The notes: generated by a model not told the origin, from the sequence alone. Counted from the first letter of the stretch, positions 15,110-41,183 are shown. The stretch is DNA of 64,000 bases from Patescibacteria group bacterium (GCA_041660005.1 JBAZXG010000004.1:5720-69719); one strand, 5' to 3'. Translations and numbers: made by a program.

Positions 15110-16672
15110 TCACGGCCGCTCGACGTCGGTCGCACGAGCGCGGCGGACCTCAAAACGGTTGAGCGCGTCCGTGAAAGCGTACGCGCTTGCCGTCGGTACG
15201 TCGGTGTCCATGCCGTGCCCACGAATGAGCTGGCCGTCGATACTGAGCAAGCAGACCACGCGAGCGTTCGCGTCCGCCCCGACAGTTACTGACTCGCACT
15301 TGTACTCCGACAGAAGAATGATTTTTGCCGTGGGATTGATCTCCTGATAGAACTCAAGAACCCCACGGAAAATCACATTGACGATGCCATCGCCCATCGG
15401 CTCCACCACGCGCAGCGCCCCATCAACTTTTCCGACGACGACAGCCATCACGGATCGTGAGGGCAGACGGCTCATGAGCTGCGCATGGACGAAACGAACG
15501 CGCTCGGGAACATCGTCGCAACCGTCGATAATCGCGAACAGGTCTTCGTTGTAGATCTCCTTCTTTCTGTCTGCCAGTATCTTGAGCCGGTCGAAGCACC
15601 TACGAACGTCGATATCTGCAGGATTGATACCGAGCTCTTTCAGTGCCTCAATAAAGCCGGTCATCCCGGAATGTTTCCCGAGTACCAACTTTGTCCGCAC
15701 TCTGCCGACGTCTTCTGGGCGCATGATCTCGTAGGTGAGAACGTCTTTTGTAACGCCGTCCTGGTGGATTCCGGCTTCGTGCGAGAATGCGTTCGCTCCT
15801 ACGATTGGCTTCGTCGGTGCAATCGGCACACCGACAATATTCGAGAGAGTTTTGCCTGCCGGGTAGAAGTGCTTGGTTCGTACGCGAGTACTAACACCGA
15901 AGTAGTCTTCGCGCGTCCTGAGCGCCATGACCACTTCGTCCATCGCCGTGTTGCCAGCCCGCTCGCCGATCCCGTTGATGGTGCACTCGATCTGTCGGGC
16001 GCCTCCCTCCACAGCTGCCAAGGAATTGGCGACCGCCAAACCGAGGTCGTTGTGGCAATGAGTACTCCAGATGACACGATCGCCTCCCGGAGTACGCGCG
16101 CGCAGCGTACGGAAAAGTTCACGGATCTGAACCGGCACCGCGTAGCCGGTGGTGTCAGGCACGTTGCAGACGACAGCGCCGGCAGCGATGACTGCCCCGA
16201 ACACCTGGATCAGGTATTCGATGTCGCTCCGCGAGGCGTCCTCGGCCGAGAACTCGATGTAGTCAACGTCGCGCCTGCAACGCTGCACTGCCCACACTGC
16301 CGCATCCAGCGCTTCTTGCCGACTCATCCCGAGCTTCTTCTCGAGATGCAAGTCCGAGGTCGCGATGAACACGTGAATCCCCGGCTTATCGGCGCCATCG
16401 ACCGCAGAGAGCGCCCTCTCGATGTCGGCTTCCTTGGTGCGTGCCAAGCTCAGCACCACCGGCCCTTTGACCGCGCGCGCAACCCTTTTCACGGCTTCGA
16501 AATCGCCAGGCGACGCTGCTGCAAAACCCGCTTCAATCACGTCCACCCCGAGCGCCTCGAGTTGGCGGGCAACGACGAGCTTCTCCTCAACATTCATCGT
16601 GCATCCGGGCGATTGCTCGCCGTCTCGGAGGGTCGTGTCGAAAATCCGTACCCAGTCCTTGTCTTCACTCAT
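15110..16672 (-). CDS. leuA: 2-isopropylmalate synthase / citramalate synthase family enzyme (LeuA-like, with a C-terminal regulatory domain). Sits in a GC-rich island.
   Basis: N-terminal [16 protein letters not shown], HxH metal site ([10 protein letters not shown]), and the C-terminal LeuA dimerisation/regulatory domain. The ATG at 16672 has an AAGGAG/AGAGGA Shine-Dalgarno upstream; the track ORF starts at a GTG at 16693. The region is visibly GC-rich compared with its flanks. Confidence 0.8.
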
Positions 16673-16756
16673 CTCCTTAGTCCTCTTCTCCACTAGCCGC
16701 CGCCCAAACAGGACGGGTTACGAACAAACTCACAAACATCGAATTGTTACAGAACA

Positions 16757-26855: not shown

Positions 26856-27959
26856 ATGGCTCTCCCCTATCAACGCATTAAAGCACTCGCTCGCGACGGA
26901 GCAATTTTGAGCTCAGCCGAGAGCATTAATGAGCAGCAGTTTCAACCTGCATCGCTCGACTGCACGCTCGGGGAAAAGGTGTATCGCATCTCATCCGGCT
27001 TTCTTCCCAAAGAAAATGAAACTGTTGCTGAACTCCTAAAAGAGCGCACGCTCTATGACTTTGCGCTGAAACCCGGAACGATCCTTGAGACGAATACCCC
27101 CTACATCATTCCTTTGCAAGAGTCGCTGGCTCTACCGGAAGCACTGACTGCCATTGCCAGCCCCAAAAGCTCAATTGGTCGGGTGGACGTCTTTGTTCGC
27201 GTCATTAGCGACAACAACCCGCAGTACGATTCTGTGCCAGCGGGTTACCATGGGCCACTTTACCTTGAAATTATTCCACTGACCTTTGCTATTCGCGTCT
27301 CTCCGGGTCTCGCTATGACGCAACTGCGTTTTCGAGATAATAACGAACATTTTCCAACCACAACTGAAATGCGGGCAATCCATAAAGAGCAATCGTTAAT
27401 TTTGAGCGAAAACGGAGAGCCATTACCCGCTGACGGCCTCCGGCTGAGAGACAATGTCCTATCTTTTACGGTTGACCTCACTGGTTCAGAAATTGTCGGC
27501 TACCGTGCAAAGCATTATGTAAACAAACTGCTCGATCTCACTAAAATCAATGAACACGAGACCGAGCTCTTTTGGCATCAGATTGATCGACAACCGGACG
27601 GCGAACTTATTCTAGAACCAAACTCCTTTTACATTATCGCCACAAAAGAACGAGTACGTGTTCCGGCAAACATGGCAGCAGAAATTATGCCCTACGACCC
27701 TTCAACAGGAGAGCTGCGCTCCCACTACGCCGGCTTTTTCGACCCGGGTTTTGGCTGTGGCAGTGACGGAACCATGCATGGGAACATTGTGGTACTCGAA
27801 GTTCGAGCGCACAGCGCCCCCTTCCGGCTGACAGACGGTCAAGTAATCTGTAAGATGATGTTTGAGCACCTTACCGAACTGCCAGAAAAAACCTACGGAT
27901 CTCTTATCGGTTCCACCTACACCGATACAAAAATTCGCTTGAGTAAATACTTTGTCTAA
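26856..27959 (+). CDS. dcd: dCTP deaminase family protein, long (about 360 aa) two-domain form.
   Basis: QPASLDCTLG matches the dCTP-deaminase/dUTPase-fold motif (QPASVDLRLG). 367 aa fits the long 2'-deoxycytidine-5'-triphosphate-deaminase family. Confidence 0.6.
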   Translation: MALPYQRIKALARDGAILSSAESINEQQFQPASLDCTLGEKVYRISSGFLPKENETVAELLKERTLYDFALKPGTILETNTPYIIPLQESLALPEALTAIASPKSSIGRVDVFVRVISDNNPQYDSVPAGYHGPLYLEIIPLTFAIRVSPGLAMTQLRFRDNNEHFPTTTEMRAIHKEQSLILSENGEPLPADGLRLRDNVLSFTVDLTGSEIVGYRAKHYVNKLLDLTKINEHETELFWHQIDRQPDGELILEPNSFYIIATKERVRVPANMAAEIMPYDPSTGELRSHYAGFFDPGFGCGSDGTMHGNIVVLEVRAHSAPFRLTDGQVICKMMFEHLTELPEKTYGSLIGSTYTDTKIRLSKYFV

Positions 27960-27960
27960 T

Positions 27961-29490
27961 ATGGAAAGCCAAGCCAAACGAGATGTGTTTGCCATTACCG
28001 GCCTGACGCCAGAAGTTCTGGCGGTCGCGATGGCAAAGTATAGCCGGTCAAAAAATTCGATCCGCGATACAATCGACGAGCTAACCGAGGAAAAGTCTGC
28101 GCAATTTCACGAAAAATGGGTGCTGGGGTATGGCGACGCTTCAGTGGCAGACATGGCAATTATTGCCATTGCTTGCGAAAACGTCTCTATTATTGCCTCA
28201 AAAGCCATAGAGGACACGCGCCTCGCCTCGTTTCAGGAAAAATCAACCCGCTACGTTGACTTTGATTCCTCGAAATATCATCGCCCCAAAGCGGCCATGA
28301 TGCGCCATGCTGAACTTTACGAAAAAACCGTAAATCATCTTTTTACCATGTATAACACGCTACTTGAAAAGATGATTCCCTATCTTCGCAAACGCATCCC
28401 TCGGCCAGCGGACACAACTGACAAACTCTACGAAGCAAAGCTGAAAGCCCGCTCACTCGATGCCGTGCGCTACCTCTTGCCAGTTGCCACGCTTACAAAC
28501 TTCGGGATGATTATGAGCGCTCGCTCGCTCCGTCATTTGATTTCAAAACTCAAGGGAAACGCTTACGAAGAAGTGCGCGAACTAGCCGAAGAGATTCAAG
28601 CAGCGGCACTAGAGCCAGCGTATAACCCACAAATAAAAAAACTACAGGAACCACTTGAGGCCCTGAAGAGTATGGGCACTGTTACCGCAAACATAGCTGA
28701 ACAAATTACCAGCATCGCTTCACTGCAAGTCAAGGGTGCGCCAACACTCATTAAACATACAGAAGCTTCACAGTACCATGCTGAGACACAAGTATATCTG
28801 AACAGCATCGCTACTGAACTGCTTGGTAGTGCTGCAATTGAAGACGCACCGCGAGTTGACTATCTTGAAGAACATTCTTACGAAGACGAACTTATCACGA
28901 CACTCGTTTACAGTGCCTGCAGCTATCCGTACCGTCAAATTCTTGCTCGTGTACAACCACTTACCCAAGAAAAAAAGCAGGAAATTTTAGACGCTCTCGC
29001 TAAACTACGCGGAACTTTTGACTACCCACGAAGGGAGTACGAAATTGGTGGGCAGTTCGTATTTGATATACTCATGGACTACGGCGCATTTCGTGACCTG
29101 CAACGACACCGCATCTGTACACAAATAAACCAGCCCCTAACAACGCAGCATGGCTATGAAGTTCCGTTTGAATTTCGCGATGCCGGTTTGGAACACGAAT
29201 TTACTGCCGCCATTGACGAAGCCCTCAAAGTTCACGCCATGATTTCTAAAAATATTGGCACTGAAGCAGACTATCTTATTCCTCTGGCTTGCAAGAAAAG
29301 AACATTATTCAAAATGAACTTGCGAGAACTTCACCACATGGTGGAACTGCGCTCAAAGCCGGGTGGGCACATGTCGTACCGAACGGTTGTTGTTGACATG
29401 CTCGACGCCGTACAAAAACGCCATCCGCTACTCGGAAAACACGTACGCGTATCAAAGCTGAACTATGATGAAGACTTCTTCAAACGCTAA
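27961..29490 (+). CDS. thyX: Flavin-dependent thymidylate synthase ThyX, tandem-duplicated (two ThyX domains, about 510 aa).
   Basis: Second domain carries the ThyX signature AFRDLQRHR...; first domain has a degenerate version (TRLASFQEKSTRY). The ATG at 27961 directly abuts the dcd stop; the track start 27952 is also possible. Confidence 0.65.
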   Translation: MESQAKRDVFAITGLTPEVLAVAMAKYSRSKNSIRDTIDELTEEKSAQFHEKWVLGYGDASVADMAIIAIACENVSIIASKAIEDTRLASFQEKSTRYVDFDSSKYHRPKAAMMRHAELYEKTVNHLFTMYNTLLEKMIPYLRKRIPRPADTTDKLYEAKLKARSLDAVRYLLPVATLTNFGMIMSARSLRHLISKLKGNAYEEVRELAEEIQAAALEPAYNPQIKKLQEPLEALKSMGTVTANIAEQITSIASLQVKGAPTLIKHTEASQYHAETQVYLNSIATELLGSAAIEDAPRVDYLEEHSYEDELITTLVYSACSYPYRQILARVQPLTQEKKQEILDALAKLRGTFDYPRREYEIGGQFVFDILMDYGAFRDLQRHRICTQINQPLTTQHGYEVPFEFRDAGLEHEFTAAIDEALKVHAMISKNIGTEADYLIPLACKKRTLFKMNLRELHHMVELRSKPGGHMSYRTVVVDMLDAVQKRHPLLGKHVRVSKLNYDEDFFKR

Positions 29491-31906: not shown

Positions 31907-32527
31907 ATGAACGTTCGATCTTTACAGGCGAGGTTCGAAGACCTCTTCAACGAAACAAGGCTTGGCCACCGCTGGCTTCTCGTTGCGGCTATCGCTGACT
32001 GGGCTCTGCGAGCAACCGAGAGAGAGTTCTCCCAAGTGGTCGCGTTCGTCAAAGAACGCGAGGATGTCTGGGCATGGACAGCCGAGACTACTCGAGCACA
32101 CGCGCAGACCAAGGGCGATCCTCATTTCGGCTGGGCGCTCAACGCCGAAACCGCAATACAGGACGTTGGGTCTAATCTCACGCAAAAGCTAGAGGTGAGC
32201 CGAACGACCTGCGAGGCCATCGAGGTTCTTGCCCAACTGGCGATCCAGTGCGCGCTCGACACACGCTCGCCGCTTGCGGCAGAACTGATCTGTGAGTTGA
32301 TCGCCCTCGCTGCGGTAATGCCAAACGACACGACTGGGATCGTTCGGGGAGGAAGGCCTCTCATGTGGACGGTTGCGACAGCATCGTCACACTACGGCCC
32401 AGACGAGGTACGCTACGGCGACGACGCCCTGCTCATCGAAGAACGCCGACATATCCTCGAAGGCGCAGCCACGCTGCGTCACAACCCCGGAGTGGCAACG
32501 CCACTCTACGAAGGCCGATCACCATGA
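31907..32527 (+). CDS. Hypothetical protein in a GC-rich island.
   Basis: 206 aa, no recognisable motif. GGAGGG Shine-Dalgarno 7 nt upstream of the ATG. Composition is clearly GC-richer than gatB and miaA on either side. Confidence 0.5.
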   Translation: MNVRSLQARFEDLFNETRLGHRWLLVAAIADWALRATEREFSQVVAFVKEREDVWAWTAETTRAHAQTKGDPHFGWALNAETAIQDVGSNLTQKLEVSRTTCEAIEVLAQLAIQCALDTRSPLAAELICELIALAAVMPNDTTGIVRGGRPLMWTVATASSHYGPDEVRYGDDALLIEERRHILEGAATLRHNPGVATPLYEGRSP

Positions 32528-32543
32528 TCGGCCTTCACTCCTT

Positions 32544-33446
32544 TCATAACCTTAACCAATCCTTGGTTAGCTTCTTTGCTTCTTCAGCGCTATCTGTCCA
32601 AAAAATACTTTTATCTCTTTTCCACCACGTCATTTGCCGTTTGGCGTACTGGTAGGTATGAGTAACAATTTTTTCTATACATTCTTCCTTTGAAATTTTT
32701 TTGTCCAGATACAAGGCAACTTCTGGATAACCAATACCACTCATAGAAGGCAATGATAAATCGTAGCGCCTTCGAAGCCGCCTCGTTTCTTCAATTAAAC
32801 CGTGAGTCATCATTTGCCTCACACGCTTATCAATGCGCTCACGCAATATCGTACGGTCCATTTGAATGCCAAGTTTTAAAACATCGTAATGCATTCCTTT
32901 TTTCGTTCTGCCGGTAATCGACGAGTTACCAATAGCACTTGCCACTTCTATAGCACGAATAACTCTCCGAGCGTTTTTAGCGTCAACTCGCGCTGAAACT
33001 AAAGGATCAAGACGCTCTAATTTTTCAACCAAATGCGACAAACCATGTTTTTCAAGCTCACGCTCGAGTTTTGTCCTCAATTTTTTATCTGGTGGAATTT
33101 GTGGCACATCCCAATTTTCTACCAGCGCATCAATAAAAAGCGCTGTTCCGCCAACAACTATCGGCAGTTTTTTGCGCTTATGAATTAGAGCAATCGCTTT
33201 TGCAGCATCCTCCTTAAACCTTTGAACAGAATACGGTTTGTCAGGGTCAACAATACTAACAAGCTGCTGCTTTATACCGCGTGGCGGGACAAGTTTAGCG
33301 GTGGCAACGTCCATTCCACGGTAGACTTGCCTCGAATCAGCAGAAATAAGTTCGCCTTGAAATTTTCGAGCAAGCTTAATAGCGAGATCAGATTTTCCCG
33401 ATGCAGTTGGACCAAGAATAACTAAAACTTTTTTCTGATTAATCAC
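32544..33446 (-). CDS. miaA: tRNA dimethylallyltransferase, with a GTG start.
   Basis: VLVILGPTASGKSDLAIKLA P-loop and DSRQVYRGMDVATAK. Confidence 0.9.
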   Translation of the reverse strand: MINQKKVLVILGPTASGKSDLAIKLARKFQGELISADSRQVYRGMDVATAKLVPPRGIKQQLVSIVDPDKPYSVQRFKEDAAKAIALIHKRKKLPIVVGGTALFIDALVENWDVPQIPPDKKLRTKLERELEKHGLSHLVEKLERLDPLVSARVDAKNARRVIRAIEVASAIGNSSITGRTKKGMHYDVLKLGIQMDRTILRERIDKRVRQMMTHGLIEETRRLRRRYDLSLPSMSGIGYPEVALYLDKKISKEECIEKIVTHTYQYAKRQMTWWKRDKSIFWTDSAEEAKKLTKDWLRL

Positions 33447-33849: not shown

Positions 33850-34416
33850 TCAGCCCCCGCCAAGCGTGAGCAACGCGAATTCGAACGCATCCGAAATCGC
33901 AATCCAACTGCCAGCTGTTACGCTCTTGCTCATAGCCGCAGTTGCCCAGACGAGCTCTCCGAGTTCCCACTCAACATGAACCCGAACGGGTGAATCAGCA
34001 CCCGACGACCCATTTGCTGGCTTGACCGTGTAATCGGTCAGTGTGAGCTGTTCAAGTCCTGGGTAGGTACCCTTGAGGGCACGCCGTGCCGCCATGTCGA
34101 GGGCACACACAGGGCCGTTTCCCGGAGCAGCGACGTGCAACGGCTCGGCGACACCACGAATCCTAATATTGAGGGTTGCCTCTGCCTGACTGTGACCCTC
34201 TGAATCGCCGATCTCGTAGATTCGATACCGATCAGCAACGAAGGGCAATTCGTAACCCGGTGTTGATTGCAAGAGCCGCATGCCAAGAGAGACGACCTCA
34301 CGCACCTCGTAGCCGCCACTTCCGCCAAGAATCTCGGCGACAAATTCAGCGGTCCCACCGGACAGGTCAAGCCCTAACCGTCGGAAATGCCCAAGAGTCA
34401 CGTTTGTCTTCCTCAT
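33850..34416 (-). CDS. Hypothetical protein in a GC-rich island, resembling a standalone LeuA C-terminal regulatory (LeuA_dimer-like) domain.
   Basis: GNGPVCALDMAARRAL and a C-terminal SKSVTAGSWIAISDAFEFAL resemble the two beta-alpha-beta halves of the LeuA allosteric domain (recalled from memory, not searched). The Met at 34416 is preceded by GGAGGA; the track ORF extends to 34491. Confidence 0.35.
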   Translation of the reverse strand: MRKTNVTLGHFRRLGLDLSGGTAEFVAEILGGSGGYEVREVVSLGMRLLQSTPGYELPFVADRYRIYEIGDSEGHSQAEATLNIRIRGVAEPLHVAAPGNGPVCALDMAARRALKGTYPGLEQLTLTDYTVKPANGSSGADSPVRVHVEWELGELVWATAAMSKSVTAGSWIAISDAFEFALLTLGGG

Positions 34417-34502
34417 CTTATCCTCCGCAAATTGCGTTCTTCGGTTGTAACGAACGGGGAAGTGAATCCCCTCCTCACTTCCCGCATCCATTTCTCGATG
34501 GA

Positions 34503-34679: not shown

Positions 34680-37600
34680 TTAGTTCGTTGACCCGCCGGG
34701 TGCAAAGAGGACGGGTTCTAGGCCAGTCACCGGAGCGCCATCGGGGTACGCAAACTGCATTTCACTAATACCCCGCACAAAGTACTCCAACTGAAACTGG
34801 TTCTCTCGCATTCCACGGTCAGTTATCAGTCGGCGTTGTCCGTTCATCATTACATAGCGAAGGTGTGATCCGGCATAATTAAACACAGTGCCGTCCGGAT
34901 GCGGCGAAGACATCGTTAATGGTTCTCCTACGGTGTACTGCACCATAACGTCATCTGGAAGCGTGACAATGCGATCTCTCCAATTGGTGCCATACAACCT
35001 CTCCCCCACATCGTCAGTTTCAATCCAATGCAATACTCCACCGGGCGAAACAGCATAGACGTGTGGATCAGTTTCTATTTTTACCAAACGAGTTCCCGGA
35101 CGAACATGCGTTATGCCACTCAAAGGGTAGTAACTTAACTCCTCATCAGTTATGGCAATGACCTTTGGGTCTCTTTTGTACCAGCTACGGAACGTAACAC
35201 CATCTTCGAGGAAAGCATAGCGTTTACCATCATACCCAACAAAATACAGAGTATCGGGCCACACAGCTTTCACTACATCACCAGGGGCGGCTCGCCAGTG
35301 CGTCGGTTCGGCGCCAAGATAACGACCAGATCTTTCGTTGTCGCGATGAAACGTAGGCCATGGACTAAGAGTATTCCCGTCTGTGGTTCCATCGAGCTCC
35401 CAAACATAAATTGAACTACGATACTTGCTGTTCCTGGTCGACATCTCCGAATCCCAATCAGAACTTGCCACAATCTCAACCTTACCGTCGTTATCGATAT
35501 CAGCAACGGTTGCCGGTGCCTGTGCGTCCTGTTCAGTAATCTTAGGAAAGCCAGGTAAAACAATTCCAGCTGCGTCCCAAGCGTAAACACCGCCACCAAC
35601 CGATATGCCGCCGGCTGTTGTCAGTACATCTACTTTGTCGTCTGCGTCTACATCACTAATAATCGTAGAGTAATAATCATTCCACCCTGTCTGCTTTGGC
35701 CAACCAGGCATAAACGTGCCATCACTCTCAAAAGCTGCCGTTTCAAGGCCAAGACTACTGCCAACAACCTCTAAGTCCCCATCGTTGTCTAGATCGGCGA
35801 GTGAAGGTGATGACCAGAAATTATAACCCTTTCGTGCCGGCCAGCCCGGTAACATGTTTCCGCCTCGGTCAAAAACCGCCAGCCCGCCATAATTATAATC
35901 GGGCCATATCTCAGAGGCGTACTGCAAACCAACAACAATATCTTCGCGTCCGTCTTTGTCTAGGTCTCCAATAGCAGGAGATGAAAAAATTATACCCTGC
36001 GTGATAACGGGCCAACCATCTACCAAAGAACCATCCATATTGAACACTAAAATCTCACCATCGTTATTCCATCCTACAAATTTACCATCCTCAACGATTC
36101 CTCCTGCTTTTTCCGAAGGACGCACAATGACAATTTCAAGATCTTCGTCGTCGTCAAAATTACCTACCGCCGGCGTCGATTCATGATCGGCTCCCCAAGA
36201 ATTCTTTGAAAGTTGCCAGTCCGAGTACACAGTACCGTCGCTTCGCAGCACGGTAACATAATCTTCCCATGAACGAGAATGAATAATTATTTCGTACCGA
36301 CCATCTCGGTCAAGATCGGCCGCGGCAATGGTCGAACTGTAAGACGAAGGAATGACCCGAGGCCATCCCGCCAACATCTTACCCCTCGCATCAAAGCCGT
36401 AAATGTTAGAACCACTACCATCGTCAAACTGGTTGGTAACAAATATTTCTTTTTTCCCGTCGCCGTCGACATCGATTACTAATGGAATGTGCAGGTTGCC
36501 GCCAGTGGCAGCCCCGGTTCCGACATCGCTTACCCATAGTTGTTTCCCGCTGTCTGAAAAAGCGTACAACTTGGGAGGTTTACCGCCAACGTACGCGATA
36601 ATTTCCTTTTTTCCTTTGCCGTTGATATCACTAACGACTGGTGTAGCGTAACCGCCCCAAATTTTGCAGCCCGGTCCTGGTGCTGGGAACCAGTCATCAG
36701 CACAATCTTCAAAAGGTAACCTAACCGGCCAACCCTCCTTGAGAGTTGAGTCTAAGTAGACATGAACAGTAGACTGTTCGATTGTTGATCCGTACGTTAC
36801 GGTAACGTTTAAACTATACCAACCAGTAGAGAGCCCTCTGGTATCCCAGGCCTTAAGCGAACGAATTTTTGTCCAGCTGGTTGGCTGGTACCCTGACCCG
36901 TATTCAATACTCGTAACTTTTGCTCTGAGACCAGCTACCGCACGTATGTCTACCGGAACAACATCTCCCGCTCGTATAACATCTGAATCCAAGGGCGAAA
37001 CAAAAGTGACATTTTTAACAGAGACGTAGCCGTAATCTACGGCGCGCTCTATTACTTCTTGCCCGTCATATTTCTTCGCAACCACCCTAACCACGTAATC
37101 ACCACTAGACATTTTAAATGTGTCCAAAGGCCACACGATGTGCTCAAACCCTCCGCCATAGTTCTGGTGGAAAAGTTCTACCCAAGCATCTTCACTCGCA
37201 CTACTAGCGAGAGGTGCGTAGCTAAGAAATATCTGCCCACCACCAACGCTCTGAACAGTATAATCAATGTTTCGTATCTGACCCTCGCTCAAGATAGGTT
37301 GAATATTAACAATGGTTGGATGGTTTGGAATAGCCGCCGCCTTCAATACATCAATGCGACCACTTCCTTGCTCAATCGCAGTAACACCCAGGTTAGAAGC
37401 CGTATTTTTGAAAGCCGCTTTTATTTCCCGTGCACTCCAATCCGGATGCAATTGTTTTAAAAGTGCCGCCGCCCCAGCGACATGCGGGGTAGCCATTGAG
37501 GTGCCGGAGATCGCAATGTGTTCGCTGTCTAAACAGAGAGACCCATTAGCGTAATTGTCGTGCTGAGCAGCGCAAATACCAACCCCCGGAGCTGTTATAT

Positions 37601-38963
37601 CCGGCTTTACAAATGTTTGCTTATTATAACTGACTGGACCGCGCGAGCTGAAGTAAGCCAACTCTTCTTTCCCGTTAGAATCCAAAACCTTAGTACTAGC
37701 TCCAACTGTTATAACTTCCCTCGCCATACCAGGACTCCCGACCGATCCACTTGACGGCCCGGAATTGCCGGCCGCTACCGCAACCACAGTGCCTGCCAAC
37801 ATAGCGTTGTTTACAGCGGTTGATATGGGATCATCCGGGCTTCCCCAACCGCCGAGACTTAAGTTAATGACGTCAACTGCGTCTGAAGGGTCACCATCGC
37901 CATTTGGATCCATAGCCCGCTCTACCCCCTCAATGACGGCCGTCGTCGATCCTGACCCGGATTCATTTAAAACTTTATAAGCATAAATTGTAGCGTCAGG
38001 TGCCACACCTTTGAGTACACCGTTACCGGCGGCAGTAGCGGCCACATGCGTCCCATGCCCATGGTCGTCCATTGGATCGCTGTCGTTATTGATGACATCA
38101 TACCCACCGGCGACTTTACAGTTCGAACCTACGGCATTGCACCCGCCCAAGTCAGGATGCGTATAGTCAACACCGGTATCGACAATGGCAATTGTTACCC
38201 CCTGACCAGTAACAGCAGCACCACTGCTGTCAGTTTTTTCCCATAATGTATCTGCCTCAATCAAAGGAACTGAATCTGACAAATTAATTTGCGTAATATA
38301 ATTTGGCCAAAGCGTATACCCCGACCGTCTGATGTCGGCTGCCTCCTTGTCAGTGATATTTAGTTCAACACCATTAAAAACATTTGCAAACTGCCTACCG
38401 ACCGCAAGCGAAGGCAGCGAACGCTTGAGGTTCAAGAGTGCGACTTGCTGCTCGTTATTAATAACCGCTTTTCTATTAGCAAACCTTTGTTTGCTTAATT
38501 TACTTTGTTCGACTAACTGTTTTTCTAAATTTTTTATCGCCTTTGTACTTTTAGTTTGGCGAAGCTGCGTTGTAATGCCTCTCCGCTCTTCATCAATTTC
38601 TGTTTTTAACTGAGCGAGAGGTTCAGTATGAAGTTCTAAAATGTACCCGTTATATTTCCCCTGAGAAAACGACTGCATTGCTGATGAGGGTAACCCTGAA
38701 GTGGAGGCACCACCGGCCATGCCTGTGTATATTGAGGGATTTCCTTGTGTGCTATGTAAAATCTGAGGAAACAATACACCACTGTTCTGCGTCTTTTCTG
38801 CACTATTTCTAACACCCAGAGTGGTAGGCGTCGCTGAGTAATCAATTTTTGCACTAGCGCCTACTGGTGCGACGACTGATACGAGCATTGAAGCGACAAC
38901 GACGACATGGAGCGACTTCGACCAGACTTTTATCAGGCGAGAAAACCGACTCAATGGGGTCAT
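34680..38963 (-). CDS. Giant secreted subtilisin-like serine protease (peptidase S8) fused to an 8-blade FG-GAP beta-propeller and a C-terminal domain of unknown function. 1427 aa from the likely ATG.
   Basis: Signal peptide MTPLSRFSRLIKVWSKSLHVVVVASMLVSVVAPVGASA|K. Catalytic triad motifs AIVDTGVDYTHPDL (Asp), HGHGTHVAATAAG (His) and GTSMATPHVAGAAALL (Ser). Eight FG-GAP-like repeats (DINGKGKKEII, DVDGDGKKEIFV, DLDRDGRYEIII, GNFDDDEDLEIVIV, DLDKDGREDIVV, DLDNDGDLEVVG, DVDADDKVDVLT, DIDNDGKVEIVA). The track ORF starts at an upstream TTG at 39017. Confidence 0.85.
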   Translation of the reverse strand: MTPLSRFSRLIKVWSKSLHVVVVASMLVSVVAPVGASAKIDYSATPTTLGVRNSAEKTQNSGVLFPQILHSTQGNPSIYTGMAGGASTSGLPSSAMQSFSQGKYNGYILELHTEPLAQLKTEIDEERRGITTQLRQTKSTKAIKNLEKQLVEQSKLSKQRFANRKAVINNEQQVALLNLKRSLPSLAVGRQFANVFNGVELNITDKEAADIRRSGYTLWPNYITQINLSDSVPLIEADTLWEKTDSSGAAVTGQGVTIAIVDTGVDYTHPDLGGCNAVGSNCKVAGGYDVINNDSDPMDDHGHGTHVAATAAGNGVLKGVAPDATIYAYKVLNESGSGSTTAVIEGVERAMDPNGDGDPSDAVDVINLSLGGWGSPDDPISTAVNNAMLAGTVVAVAAGNSGPSSGSVGSPGMAREVITVGASTKVLDSNGKEELAYFSSRGPVSYNKQTFVKPDITAPGVGICAAQHDNYANGSLCLDSEHIAISGTSMATPHVAGAAALLKQLHPDWSAREIKAAFKNTASNLGVTAIEQGSGRIDVLKAAAIPNHPTIVNIQPILSEGQIRNIDYTVQSVGGGQIFLSYAPLASSASEDAWVELFHQNYGGGFEHIVWPLDTFKMSSGDYVVRVVAKKYDGQEVIERAVDYGYVSVKNVTFVSPLDSDVIRAGDVVPVDIRAVAGLRAKVTSIEYGSGYQPTSWTKIRSLKAWDTRGLSTGWYSLNVTVTYGSTIEQSTVHVYLDSTLKEGWPVRLPFEDCADDWFPAPGPGCKIWGGYATPVVSDINGKGKKEIIAYVGGKPPKLYAFSDSGKQLWVSDVGTGAATGGNLHIPLVIDVDGDGKKEIFVTNQFDDGSGSNIYGFDARGKMLAGWPRVIPSSYSSTIAAADLDRDGRYEIIIHSRSWEDYVTVLRSDGTVYSDWQLSKNSWGADHESTPAVGNFDDDEDLEIVIVRPSEKAGGIVEDGKFVGWNNDGEILVFNMDGSLVDGWPVITQGIIFSSPAIGDLDKDGREDIVVGLQYASEIWPDYNYGGLAVFDRGGNMLPGWPARKGYNFWSSPSLADLDNDGDLEVVGSSLGLETAAFESDGTFMPGWPKQTGWNDYYSTIISDVDADDKVDVLTTAGGISVGGGVYAWDAAGIVLPGFPKITEQDAQAPATVADIDNDGKVEIVASSDWDSEMSTRNSKYRSSIYVWELDGTTDGNTLSPWPTFHRDNERSGRYLGAEPTHWRAAPGDVVKAVWPDTLYFVGYDGKRYAFLEDGVTFRSWYKRDPKVIAITDEELSYYPLSGITHVRPGTRLVKIETDPHVYAVSPGGVLHWIETDDVGERLYGTNWRDRIVTLPDDVMVQYTVGEPLTMSSPHPDGTVFNYAGSHLRYVMMNGQRRLITDRGMRENQFQLEYFVRGISEMQFAYPDGAPVTGLEPVLFAPGGSTN

Positions 38964-39220
38964 AGTGTTCAAAAAAATTAGAGAAAACCCTTTTAGAAGG
39001 GTTGAATATCTTAGCAAAAATTAGCTTTTTGTCAAGGCGACTGCGGGGACCCACTATAAAATGACCAAAAAGCGAAGGTATCATTTTTTTATACCAACGC
39101 AGGCAGCGACGACGCAAAAAGATATAAATGGTATTAACCCCAGGGCTAAGCCCTGGATTTCTCAATTCGCCCGTGGGCGAAGTGAGAAAGGGAGCGCGAC
39201 AGAGCTACGCAAGTATCAAA

Positions 39221-39256
39221 TTACACCATTTTGTGCGTACGCACAAAATGGTGTAA
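39221..39256. repeat. Perfect 36-bp palindrome (inverted repeat) between the thrS 3' end and the subtilase promoter region.
   Basis: ttacaccattttgtgcgtacgcacaaaatggtgtaa is exactly self-complementary. There is no convincing U-tract on either side. Confidence 0.7.
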
Positions 39257-39374
39257 AAATCATAATAAGTGATATTAAACCCTTTGACTCTAACGTCGCT
39301 CGGAAATGCAAATTGCAGTTTGTACTTTGCTCGAATATCCAGCAATAAATGTAGTCCGTCAGTTTTACGGCGCC

Positions 39375-41183
39375 TTAATTATGACGAGTTTTGATTTGTT
39401 CTTTCATCCGGTGAACAAAATCACCAAGCGTAATTACCAGTAATTCCTTTTCGCCTCGTAAACGAACTGCCAGCATAGTATTGTCTGACCATGAACCATT
39501 TTCCGGAATCTCTTTGTCGCCAATGACAAGAGCATAGGGTAACTTTTCCCCCGCAGCTTTGCGAATTTTATTACCAACCGTATCTCCGGTCTCGTCCACG
39601 CTTACGCGTACTCCTTTTGCTTCAAGGTCGCGAGCAAGATTTCGCGCTGCGACAAGATGGCTCTCCCCAACAGGAACAATGCCGACCTGCACTGGTGAGA
39701 GCCAAACGGGAAACGCGCCAGCAAAGTGTTCAATGATGATACCGATGAAGCGTTCCATTGAACCGTAGATGACTCGATGAATGGCGACAGGTATCTGTTT
39801 CTTACCTTCTGCGTCAGTATAGTGAAGATTAAAACGGCGCGGCTGTTGAAAGTCTAATTGAATTGTTCCCATTTGCCACTCTCTTCCAAGAATATCTCGC
39901 ATGAGAATATCAATCTTCGGACCATAGAATGCACCGTCCCCCTCAAGAACAATGAACGACTTACCACTATCAACCAATATCTTCTTAAGAGCTGCCTCAG
40001 CTTGATCCCAGGTTGCGACGTCGCCCATAAACTTTTCAGGACGGGTGCCCAGTCGGTATGAATATTCAAGACCAAATATTGAGTAAAAACGATCAACAAT
40101 GCTCATCACTTCGGCAAATTCTGCAGCAATCATGTCTTCTGATACAAAAATATGCGCGTCATCCTGTCGAAATTCACGCACGCGCAATAAACCATTCAGC
40201 GTGCCAGAAAGTTCATTACGATGCAAAGTGTCCGTGTCAGACAGACGGAGAGGCAAGTCGCGATAGCTATGCCCACGCGAACCAAAGACCACCATAGCAT
40301 TCGGACAATTCATGGCCTTAACACCGTATTCTTCACCTTCATCAGTTTTAGCAACAAACATATCACTCCAGTAGTGCTCGTAGTGCCCAGAGATTTCGTA
40401 AAGCTCTCGCTTGTTCAGCATTGGCGAAACGATTTCTTGATATCCGCGCCGACGATGCTCTTCTCTCCAAAACTGAACCAGCTCATTATAGACAATCACT
40501 CCTTTCGGTAACCAGTACGGCATGCCGGGAGCTGTTTCGTGAAACATGAAGAGATCAAGTTCTTGACCTAATTTTCGATGATCCCGCTTTTTTGCCTCTT
40601 CGACCATCGTCAAATACTGAGATAACTCTCGCGCAGTCAGGAATGCCACACCGTACACACGCTGCAGCATCTTATTCTTCTCGCTCCCCCGCCAATAAGC
40701 GCCGGCTAGTTTCGTCAGGGTAAAAGCGCCAATGTCGTGAGTCGTTTTAACGTGCGGCCCTCTGCAAAGGTCAACGAACTTTCCGGTTTCGTAAACCGAG
40801 GTGATTTCTTTAGCGCTCGGATCAATATCGAACACAGCGTCCGGGTCAACTTTGGTCGTGCCTTTGTCTCGGAGCGCCTCAAGTAATTCAACTTTATATG
40901 GCTGATTCCGTTCACCAAAAAATGCAATGGCCTCGGCAATCGACATTTCTTTGCGAATGTATGCTTCTCCCCTTTTCTGAATTTCCCGCATTGTCGCTTC
41001 TATTTTTGGAAAGTCTTCAAACGAAAGCGAGACCGGCAAATCAACATCATAATAAAATCCATTCTCAACAACGGGGCCAACGCCAAACTTTGCCTCCGGA
41101 TAAAGTTCCTGGAGAGCTGCCGCAAGTAAATGCGCGGTGGAGTGTCGCATAGTGTCTACTGCCGATAATTCTTGTTTAGACAT
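39375..41183 (-). CDS. thrS: Threonyl-tRNA synthetase, lacking the N-terminal TGS domain.
   Basis: Starts in the N2/editing domain (HSTAHLLAAALQELYPE...GPVVENGFYYDVDLP), then the class II core and the anticodon-binding domain. 602 aa. Confidence 0.9.
   Translation of the reverse strand: MSKQELSAVDTMRHSTAHLLAAALQELYPEAKFGVGPVVENGFYYDVDLPVSLSFEDFPKIEATMREIQKRGEAYIRKEMSIAEAIAFFGERNQPYKVELLEALRDKGTTKVDPDAVFDIDPSAKEITSVYETGKFVDLCRGPHVKTTHDIGAFTLTKLAGAYWRGSEKNKMLQRVYGVAFLTARELSQYLTMVEEAKKRDHRKLGQELDLFMFHETAPGMPYWLPKGVIVYNELVQFWREEHRRRGYQEIVSPMLNKRELYEISGHYEHYWSDMFVAKTDEGEEYGVKAMNCPNAMVVFGSRGHSYRDLPLRLSDTDTLHRNELSGTLNGLLRVREFRQDDAHIFVSEDMIAAEFAEVMSIVDRFYSIFGLEYSYRLGTRPEKFMGDVATWDQAEAALKKILVDSGKSFIVLEGDGAFYGPKIDILMRDILGREWQMGTIQLDFQQPRRFNLHYTDAEGKKQIPVAIHRVIYGSMERFIGIIIEHFAGAFPVWLSPVQVGIVPVGESHLVAARNLARDLEAKGVRVSVDETGDTVGNKIRKAAGEKLPYALVIGDKEIPENGSWSDNTMLAVRLRGEKELLVITLGDFVHRMKEQIKTRHN

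Follow-up and report, generated by a model that had tools for sequence, protein, structure and literature searches.

A Patescibacteria propeller subtilase with a widespread three-repeat module of putative cell-envelope retention

The protease gene and the architecture of its product

The stretch of DNA analysed herein, 64,000 nucleotides of a contig from a Patescibacteria group bacterium (GCA_041660005.1 JBAZXG010000004.1:5720-69719) and referred to below as the window, encodes on its minus strand a large subtilase ending in a three-repeat module, which is the main subject of the present study. The open reading frame (ORF) runs from an ATG at 38963 to a stop codon at 34680-34682 and specifies 1427 amino acids. 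As the original prediction, made from the sequence alone, had stated, an ORF scan showed it to be the largest in the window, the next ORFs being 1081 and 1071 residues long. The longest possible frame starts at a TTG at 39017 (1445 residues), and the public gene call for an identical sequence (P0001, Logan SRR18595301) starts at the ATG at 38888 (1402 residues). The start at 38963 is preferred to that at 38888 because the latter removes the positively charged n-region of the signal peptide. The lack of a Shine-Dalgarno motif before 38963 is no argument against this start, since such a motif was found upstream of only 4 of the 35 genes in the window. The following regions were assigned in the protein, and we hold this domain architecture to be nearly certain:

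38853..38963, minus strand: Sec-type signal peptide, residues 1-37 (inspection and hydropathy)
38259..38852, minus strand: low-complexity linker and putative I9-like propeptide with a helical insertion of ~70 residues, residues 38-235
37329..38207, minus strand: S8A subtilase catalytic domain, residues 253-545 (Pfam, alignment to subtilisin BPN', Foldseek)
36639..37328, minus strand: two beta-sandwich domains, residues 546-775 (secondary structure of the AlphaFold2 model, Foldseek)
35319..36638, minus strand: eight-bladed FG-GAP beta-propeller, residues 776-1195, and its closing motif (Pfam, motif positions, AlphaFold2)
34710..35285, minus strand: three-repeat module of putative cell-envelope retention, residues ~1227-1418 (R1 1227-1288, R2 1289-1355, R3 1356-1418)

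The predicted Sec signal peptide agrees with inspection and with hydropathy rules. An n-region with four Arg or Lys residues, MTPLSRFSRLIKVWSKS, is followed by a hydrophobic core, LHVVVVASMLVSVVAPVG, and by a c-region with an AxA-type cleavage site (ASA before K), and hydrophobic 15-residue windows were observed in this stretch and nowhere else in the protein. The region before the catalytic domain appears to be an I9-like propeptide. The pattern GYILEL...FNGVELNITDKEAADIRRSGYTLWPNYITQINL that flanks it agrees with the consensus of a 67-sequence family alignment, and the alignment to Vpr (8jmw) begins at residue 144; the Pfam model Inhibitor_I9 (PF05922) was detected in many homologues and not in the protease itself. 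A weak match to AIP3 was attributed to the helical, coiled-coil-like composition of the insertion in the propeptide and was rejected.

The catalytic domain was identified by sequence as well as by fold. Pfam Peptidase_S8 (PF00082) matches residues 253-532 with an E-value of 2e-60 and 204.8 bits, against a cut-off of 21.8. The complete catalytic triad claimed earlier was recovered on alignment to subtilisin BPN', in which D262, H303, S489 and the oxyanion residue N400 correspond to D32, H64, S221 and N155; all four are invariant in the 67-sequence family alignment, and the order Asp-His-Ser, the DTG, HGTH and GTSMA motifs and the oxyanion Asn are those of subfamily S8A. An AlphaFold2 model of residues 230-1215, built on the same alignment, reached a predicted local distance difference test score (pLDDT) of 93.5 and a predicted template modelling score (pTM) of 0.86. 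In Foldseek, its catalytic domain superimposed on subtilisins BPN' and Carlsberg with a target-normalised template modelling (TM) score of 0.88-0.90 and a root-mean-square deviation of 2.5-2.8 A. A mycosin identity (TIGR03921, the S8 proteases associated with the type VII secretion system) was rejected, as the score of 125.7 bits lies below the equivalog cut-off of 278.75. The protein contains six cysteines in three short-loop pairs, 275/282 and 464/477 in the catalytic domain and 754/766 in the beta-sandwich region, and several of these cysteines show no or almost no variation across the family; this pairing fits an extracytoplasmic protein. The gene probably encodes a catalytically complete, exported and active S8A subtilase.

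The first of the two beta-sandwich domains that follow is the counterpart of the C-terminal beta-jelly-roll of Tk-SP, KP-43 and Vpr, and the Foldseek alignments to 3afg, 1wmd and 8jmw extend 100-240 columns past the S8 domain. A Pfam match to Big_7 in this region is weak. Among solved structures, the closest relatives by sequence of the catalytic domain are Vpr, Tk-SP and the classical subtilisins. Tk-SP (3AFG), Vpr of B. subtilis (8JMW) and KP-43 (1WMD), the best matches in sequence and fold, share with the protease an S8A domain (30-36% identity), a propeptide and a beta-sandwich after the catalytic domain, but are much shorter and lack both the FG-GAP propeller and the three-repeat tail. 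The cell-envelope proteinases of Gram-positive bacteria, PrtP, ScpA/ScpB and SpyCEP (7YZX, 8BTY, 7EDD, 5XYR), were matched in Foldseek with E-values of ~1e-21 to 1e-23. These are likewise large surface S8 proteases with beta-sandwich spacers and a wall anchor; however, they possess PA and Fn3 domains and are anchored through LPXTG and sortase, whereas the present protein carries a propeller and a module of a non-covalent type.

The propeller was recognised by FG-GAP (PF01839; 69.6 bits against a cut-off of 22.1) and FG-GAP_3 (PF13517; 83.3 against 26.9) in 5-7 stretches, and the AlphaFold2 model contains eight blade units, each of strand A, loop and strand B, with the loops at residues 780, 831, 883, 937, 1000, 1057, 1104 and 1155. 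Eight Ca-binding FG-GAP repeats had been claimed: the eight blades and the profile matches above cut-off bear this out, but the strict motif D-x-D-x-D-G-x-x-E/D is present in only five of the eight loops (831, 883, 1000, 1057 and 1155). The loop at 1104 (DVDADDKVD) is near-canonical, and those at 780 (DINGKGKKE) and 937 (DDDEDLE) are degenerate. Five or six loops are therefore of the Ca type, and Ca binding is predicted from these motifs. The propeller is closed by the motif WPTFHRDNERSGRY (WPxFxxD...G) at residues ~1202-1215, which is common to nearly all homologues. Integrin-alpha and bacterial FG-GAP/VCBS propellers share the FG-GAP repeats with DxDxDG Ca-type hairpin loops, but the integrin propeller is described as seven-bladed (PMC3192720), and the eight blade units of the model depart from this type. 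Weak Pfam matches to the propellers of polysaccharide lyases, RGL11_C (E=0.0036; PL11 lyase) and Beta-prop_CGLA (lambda-carrageenase), hint at eight-bladed relatives. Such relatives exist among the PL11 rhamnogalacturonan lyases. The Foldseek matches of the model of residues 230-1215 were dominated by subtilisins, and none was informative on the propeller.

The core of the protease, that is, S8 domain, beta-sandwich and propeller, belongs to a large family. A homologue search with the whole protein returned more than 7,500 matches, and the best 120 all combine S8 with FG-GAP at 30-50% identity over ~80% of the query; in their sources they are labelled merely "S8 family serine peptidase". Wherever an organism is named among these 120, it is either a bacterium of the candidate phyla radiation (CPR; Parcubacteria, Buchananbacteria, Sungbacteria, Vogelbacteria and Patescibacteria) or one of the DPANN or other archaea (Micrarchaeota, Pacearchaeota, Woesearchaeota). 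The tails of the homologues vary and include CARDB, LamG-like, PA14, dockerin and other domains, with one PG_binding_1 tail (P0061), and a hydrophobic C-terminal segment is present in 5 of the 120. By its sequence relatives, the core adds a member to a large, annotated but uncharacterised family typical of CPR bacteria and DPANN archaea. The original prediction had described giant surface proteases as characteristic of episymbiotic bacteria with reduced genomes. As to lineage this was right, the contig being from Patescibacteria and five of the flanking housekeeping proteins exactly matching NCBI proteins (MFA59545xx) from a Patescibacteria metagenome-assembled genome, and the association of a secreted, catalytically complete propeller subtilase with episymbiont lineages was supported by the named homologues; "giant", however, is relative, as the protein is one member of a large annotated family. 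The core is a candidate shared tool of the CPR and DPANN episymbiotic radiations.

Two further observations concern this core. It is found at 32-40% identity in both CPR bacteria and DPANN or other archaea (P0035, P0082, P0092, P0105, L001), and archaeal and bacterial homologues are interleaved in the ranking, which suggests that the core has moved between domains among episymbionts. A scan of contigs with the core alignment, in which generic S8 peptide patterns were used, yielded for the most part ordinary subtilases from Actinobacteria and Firmicutes and was uninformative on taxonomy and synteny.

The three-repeat module

The original prediction had left a C-terminal domain of about 250 residues unassigned. 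The lack of a recognisable motif was borne out, as residues 1214-1427 gave no Pfam or NCBIfam match and no credible sequence match in the PDB. The domain is, however, shorter than claimed, the first ~20 residues after residue 1195 belonging to the propeller-closing motif and the module itself comprising ~190 residues, and it is not an orphan. A word-indexed homologue search with the tail alone returned nothing, and the family was revealed only by an exhaustive HMMER scan of 1.84 billion cluster representatives, in which the module was present in 3917 proteins at E<=1e-3, of which 2641 reached E<=1e-10; identity was 33-46% over ~190 residues. The carriers returned by a further, profile-based search are named "hypothetical protein [Patescibacteria group bacterium]", and no Pfam domain covers the module in them. 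The core homologues and the module carriers were kept in separate alignments; in a combined alignment the module proteins were misaligned.

The position of the module was determined in the best 150 carriers, on which the following counts rest. The module lies within the first ~120 residues in 108 of them and at the extreme C-terminus in 38. In 15 inspected N-termini, an AxA-type signal-peptide end leads directly into the module (...ASA/GDLIKASGPAVYYY...). Thousands of exported Patescibacteria proteins carry it. In the profile-based search, the partner domains include M23 peptidases (many), cupredoxin/plastocyanin, PA14 and fn3-like domains, and the M23 enzymes have a two-repeat version of the module. 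A single family accounts for 27 of the 150. These proteins, mostly of ~1200-1450 residues (P0123, P0231, P0270, P0147 and 23 others), consist of a signal peptide, the module and an acidic sequence rich in Thr, Ser, Gly and Asp in which no Pfam domain was found, and by this composition they are candidate proteins of the surface layer (S-layer). At each of two other, unrelated loci, a pair of module genes lies within 21 kb. The idea of a C-terminal sorting signal resembling the C-terminal domain of the type IX secretion system was rejected, since the module is N-terminal in most carriers, and matches of the tail to "Scone" and PQQ were rejected as short, with E-values of ~1e-3, and unsupported by the model.

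The structure of the module was predicted with AlphaFold2 on an alignment of 65 carriers, and the fold was confident (pLDDT 91.9, pTM 0.86). It is a three-fold repeat of three strands, a helix and a strand, and comparison of the repeats with hhalign showed them to be homologous and in register, with a probability of 88% for R1-R3, 56% for R2-R3 and 40% for R1-R2. The conserved aromatic and basic residues are W48, W115, Y130, R35, R75 and K82 in module numbering. In a Foldseek search of the PDB, the sole significant matches were the periplasmic repeat domains of EccB1, EccB3 and EccB5 of type VII secretion (E=1e-4 to 1e-3, probability 0.92-0.99), and the ~55-residue repeats of EccB1 have been reported to be similar to PlyCB, a subunit of a streptococcal phage lysin that binds the cell wall (PMC4769845). 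The EccB repeats (4KK7, 3X3M, 7NPS) and PlyCB resemble the module in being tandem repeats of ~55-65 residues, each a beta-sheet plus a helix, and in their location in the envelope. EccB differs in having four repeats round a central sheet and a transmembrane helix and in being part of a secretion machine, and the module has no detectable sequence similarity to it: the EccB profile PF05108 did not match the protease and matched 1 of 30 module sequences, at E=0.058. An EccB identity of the module was rejected, as the likeness is one of fold and confined to the repeat. In the search of viral models, an uncharacterised protein of a giant virus, Chrysochromulina ericina virus, gave the lowest E-value (5.6e-6), and the closest superposition was obtained with a small protein of two repeats from Rhodococcus phage Weasels2 (target-normalised TM 0.76, E=2.5e-5), followed by a Streptomyces phage protein; matches to phage lysozyme and CHAP were much weaker.

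No description of this module was found in the papers searched, and neither Pfam nor NCBIfam holds a model of it. As judged from the sequence searches, the module is the new element at this locus, widespread in Patescibacteria and absent from the domain databases.

Proposed retention at the cell envelope and alternative roles

Herein, we propose that the gene product is a cell-envelope-retained proteinase of a CPR bacterium, a reading in which we have moderate confidence; retention by the module is held with equal or slightly greater confidence. Several observations argue for anchoring. First, the module either follows directly on the signal peptide or forms the very C-terminus, a placement that is the signature of SLH-type anchors. 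Second, it is joined to enzymes that hydrolyse the wall, to redox proteins outside the cytoplasm and to S-layer-like giants. Third, several carriers occur per genome region. Fourth, the relatives by fold are envelope-associated. Fifth, the protease has no other anchor. The original prediction had pointed to a search for sorting or anchoring signals, and among the known wall anchors sought by Pfam, motif and hydropathy, no LPXTG, SLH, LysM, CW_binding, PG_binding_1 or C-terminal transmembrane helix was found in the protein.

The proposed course of events is as follows. The protein would be exported by the Sec pathway and the signal peptide cleaved after Ala37. The propeptide would act as folding chaperone and inhibitor and be removed autocatalytically, as in other subtilases, and the propeller might provide a Ca-stabilised platform for a substrate or ligand. 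The module would bind a polymer of the cell's own envelope, which may be peptidoglycan, a wall polysaccharide or the S-layer, and would thus correspond in function to a set of three tandem SLH domains or to the PrtP/ScpA wall anchor. The analogy with SLH triplets is a functional one. They too consist of three repeats of ~60 residues and occur in many unrelated exoproteins, proteases and S-layer-like giants among them, where they are located behind the signal peptide or at the C-terminal end; however, they are all-helical, whereas the module is beta-rich and has no sequence or Pfam similarity to them. The retained enzyme would then yield peptides from extracellular or host-surface proteins for a presumably auxotrophic cell. 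Host attachment or nutrient scavenging, as originally suggested, is plausible for this protease, and a specific role as an envelope proteinase of the PrtP or ScpA kind that feeds an auxotroph, degrades the host surface, or both, is put forward only tentatively. For the degradation of host surface proteins, the SPEARE proteins of Nanohaloarchaeota offer a published precedent (PMC6642349).

Several points weigh against this proposal. The anchoring role is drawn from position, partners and a fold resemblance of low TM score, and protease activity, propeptide cleavage and Ca binding are read from conserved residues; the signal peptide is a rule-based call made by inspection. The global TM score between the module and EccB is 0.24, so that the likeness holds for the repeat and not for the arrangement of the repeats, and the binding of EccB to peptidoglycan is itself a hypothesis of its authors, without experimental proof (PMC4769845). 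The module tail was found in none of the other 119 core homologues, and an S8 or propeller core in none of the 150 best module carriers; within these two sets of 120 and 150 proteins, the fusion of core and module occurs in this organism only and is therefore not a conserved design. Moreover, the module was not found in phages, either in a pattern scan of IMG/VR or by tblastn against INPHARED; its occurrence there would have tied it to the Patescibacteria envelope.

The alternative that survives best is that the module targets the cell wall of the host, so that the protease would be an effector of attack or attachment and the hydrolases (S8, M23) would be delivered onto the host envelope. M23 peptidoglycan hydrolases are indeed among the partners, and relatives by fold are found in envelope proteins and phages of Actinobacteria (EccB; the Rhodococcus and Streptomyces phage proteins). 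Actinobacteria are the hosts of some Patescibacteria. A DPANN precedent for a combination of protease and adhesion in host interaction is provided by the SPEARE proteins of Nanohaloarchaeota, which have been proposed to degrade the host S-layer (PMC6642349). Like the present protein, they join a serine-protease region to adhesion-type domains on the surface of a reduced-genome obligate episymbiont, but they are 3,300-8,500 residues long and possess a transmembrane helix as anchor, an intracellular restriction-endonuclease part and laminin-G and toxin domains, none of which is present here. However, the module is also carried by cupredoxins and heads the S-layer-like family of ~1200 residues, for which housekeeping surface display is the better fit, and we consider a host-wall target unlikely.

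Somewhat less likely still is the free release of the enzyme, with the module, and likewise the propeller, serving to bind a substrate in the manner of a carbohydrate-binding module (CBM) and with no anchor at all. The accessory binding domains among the homologue tails (CARDB, LamG-like, PA14, dockerin), the weak propeller matches to RGL11_C and Beta-prop_CGLA and the conserved aromatic and basic residues of the module would be consistent with such a function. A CBM would nevertheless be unexpected directly after the signal peptide of hundreds of unrelated large proteins, or on cupredoxins.

Returning to retention in the cell's own envelope, we further suggest that the module may be a general cell-envelope anchor of Patescibacteria, a beta-rich counterpart of the SLH triplet and distant fold kin of the EccB/PlyCB repeats, to which we give slightly less than an even chance. 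A large share of bacterial diversity belongs to Patescibacteria, bacteria with a life attached to other cells and with hardly any cultivated members, and the build of their surface is poorly known. The value of the present finding lies more in the module, present in thousands of exported proteins, than in this gene. If the module is an anchor to the wall or S-layer, it would tether the S-layer-like giants, wall hydrolases, cupredoxins and the propeller subtilase and define the displayed surface proteome, and one profile would be sufficient to list that proteome for any CPR genome, from proteases and wall hydrolases to electron carriers and S-layer candidates. Pull-downs, labelling and studies of host range would also gain a handle from it.

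The upstream palindrome and the neighbouring genes

The gene is preceded on the same strand by thrS, whose stop lies at 39375, and the intergenic region of 411 nt contains the following features:

39221..39256, no strand assigned: perfect 36-bp palindrome (18+18 nt), arms TTACACCATTTTGTGCGT and ACGCACAAAATGGTGTAA
39158-39189, minus strand: second tandem hairpin, 7+6 bp
within 38964-39374, minus strand: third tandem hairpin, CCAGGGCUUAGCCCUGG
39008..39035, minus strand: best sigma-70-like promoter match, TTGACA-16-TAAGAT, 10/12 with extended TG (a consensus match only)
38971..39003, minus strand: 7-bp hairpin AACCCUU/AAGGGUU followed by a U-rich tract, abutting the ATG

The perfect 36-bp palindrome noted previously about 260 bp upstream is real. 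Its distance from the downstream ATG is 258 nt, and the window contains neither a longer hairpin nor a second copy; a perfect palindrome with 18-nt arms is expected by chance in 64 kb at ~1e-6. It is situated 119 nt downstream of the thrS stop and ~185 nt upstream of the -35 element of the best promoter-like site. The intergenic RNA (38964-39374, minus strand) folds far better than shuffled controls (z=-6.2), and in it the palindrome forms a hairpin of 16-18 bp, the first of three strong tandem hairpins. The palindrome is tentatively read as a 3' hairpin of thrS, either a terminator or a stabiliser. In favour of a terminator is the strong stem of 16-18 bp; against it, an intrinsic terminator should have a G+C-rich stem and a run of five or more U, whereas the stem has 39% G+C and the tail, UUUGAUACUU, is a poor U-tract, and the element was not called by a consensus scan. 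The structured region as a whole could be a 3' untranslated element or a small RNA, and the hairpin at 38971-39003 might either terminate read-through from thrS or be a structure of the leader. A search of the intergenic region against Rfam gave only a weak match to SpF51 (E=0.23), on this last hairpin.

The palindrome had been suggested to be the operator of the protease gene, and such a site for a dimeric regulator, which would accord with a perfect 18+18 palindrome that cannot be due to chance and with the distal activator sites known in bacteria, is very unlikely here given the distance of ~185 nt from the -35 element, the position 119 nt beyond the stop codon of the co-oriented thrS, the folding into the first of three strong RNA hairpins, the lack of a second copy in the window, the absence of its 26-nt core from the JGI metagenome contigs and the absence of an adjacent regulator gene. 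A homologue search and the JGI metagenome contigs yielded no relatives close enough for a test of the conservation of the palindrome. Elsewhere in the window, a perfect hairpin with a 12-bp stem (32510-32536) lies exactly between the convergent genes at 31907-32527 (plus strand) and 32544-33446 (miaA, minus strand); it is likely a bidirectional terminator and an example of a gene-end hairpin in this genome.

In the 25 nt upstream of 35 ORF starts, many starts in the window were seen to be preceded by ...ACT/ATG, and at several of them, for example 22874, 26260 and 42583, boxes similar to a -10 element (TATAAT, TACAAT, TATGAT) end 7-10 nt before the ATG, which suggests leaderless messenger RNAs or messenger RNAs with very short leaders.

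The flanking genes are of the housekeeping type (miaA, thrS, dnaE, pheST, gatB, thyX, tmk), and a scan of the window found no tRNA genes and no Rfam family at gathering thresholds. Directly downstream of the protease gene, at 33850-34491 on the minus strand, lies an ORF of 213 residues in which LeuA_dimer, known as the allosteric domain of isopropylmalate synthase, is the one domain recognised by Pfam; the catalytic domain is missing. This ORF has a promoter-like site of its own at 34675-34648, and the pair of protease and LeuA_dimer genes is also present in Logan contig L081. The thyX-like ORF at 27952-29490 (plus strand) encodes 512 residues with two Thy1 stretches, about twice the usual length of ThyX, and may be a tandem-duplicated or fused ThyX. 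Finally, two ORFs at 15110-16693 (minus strand, 527 residues) and 15485-16696 (plus strand, 403 residues) overlap almost fully on opposite strands, in the region of highest G+C content in the window (0.50-0.53).

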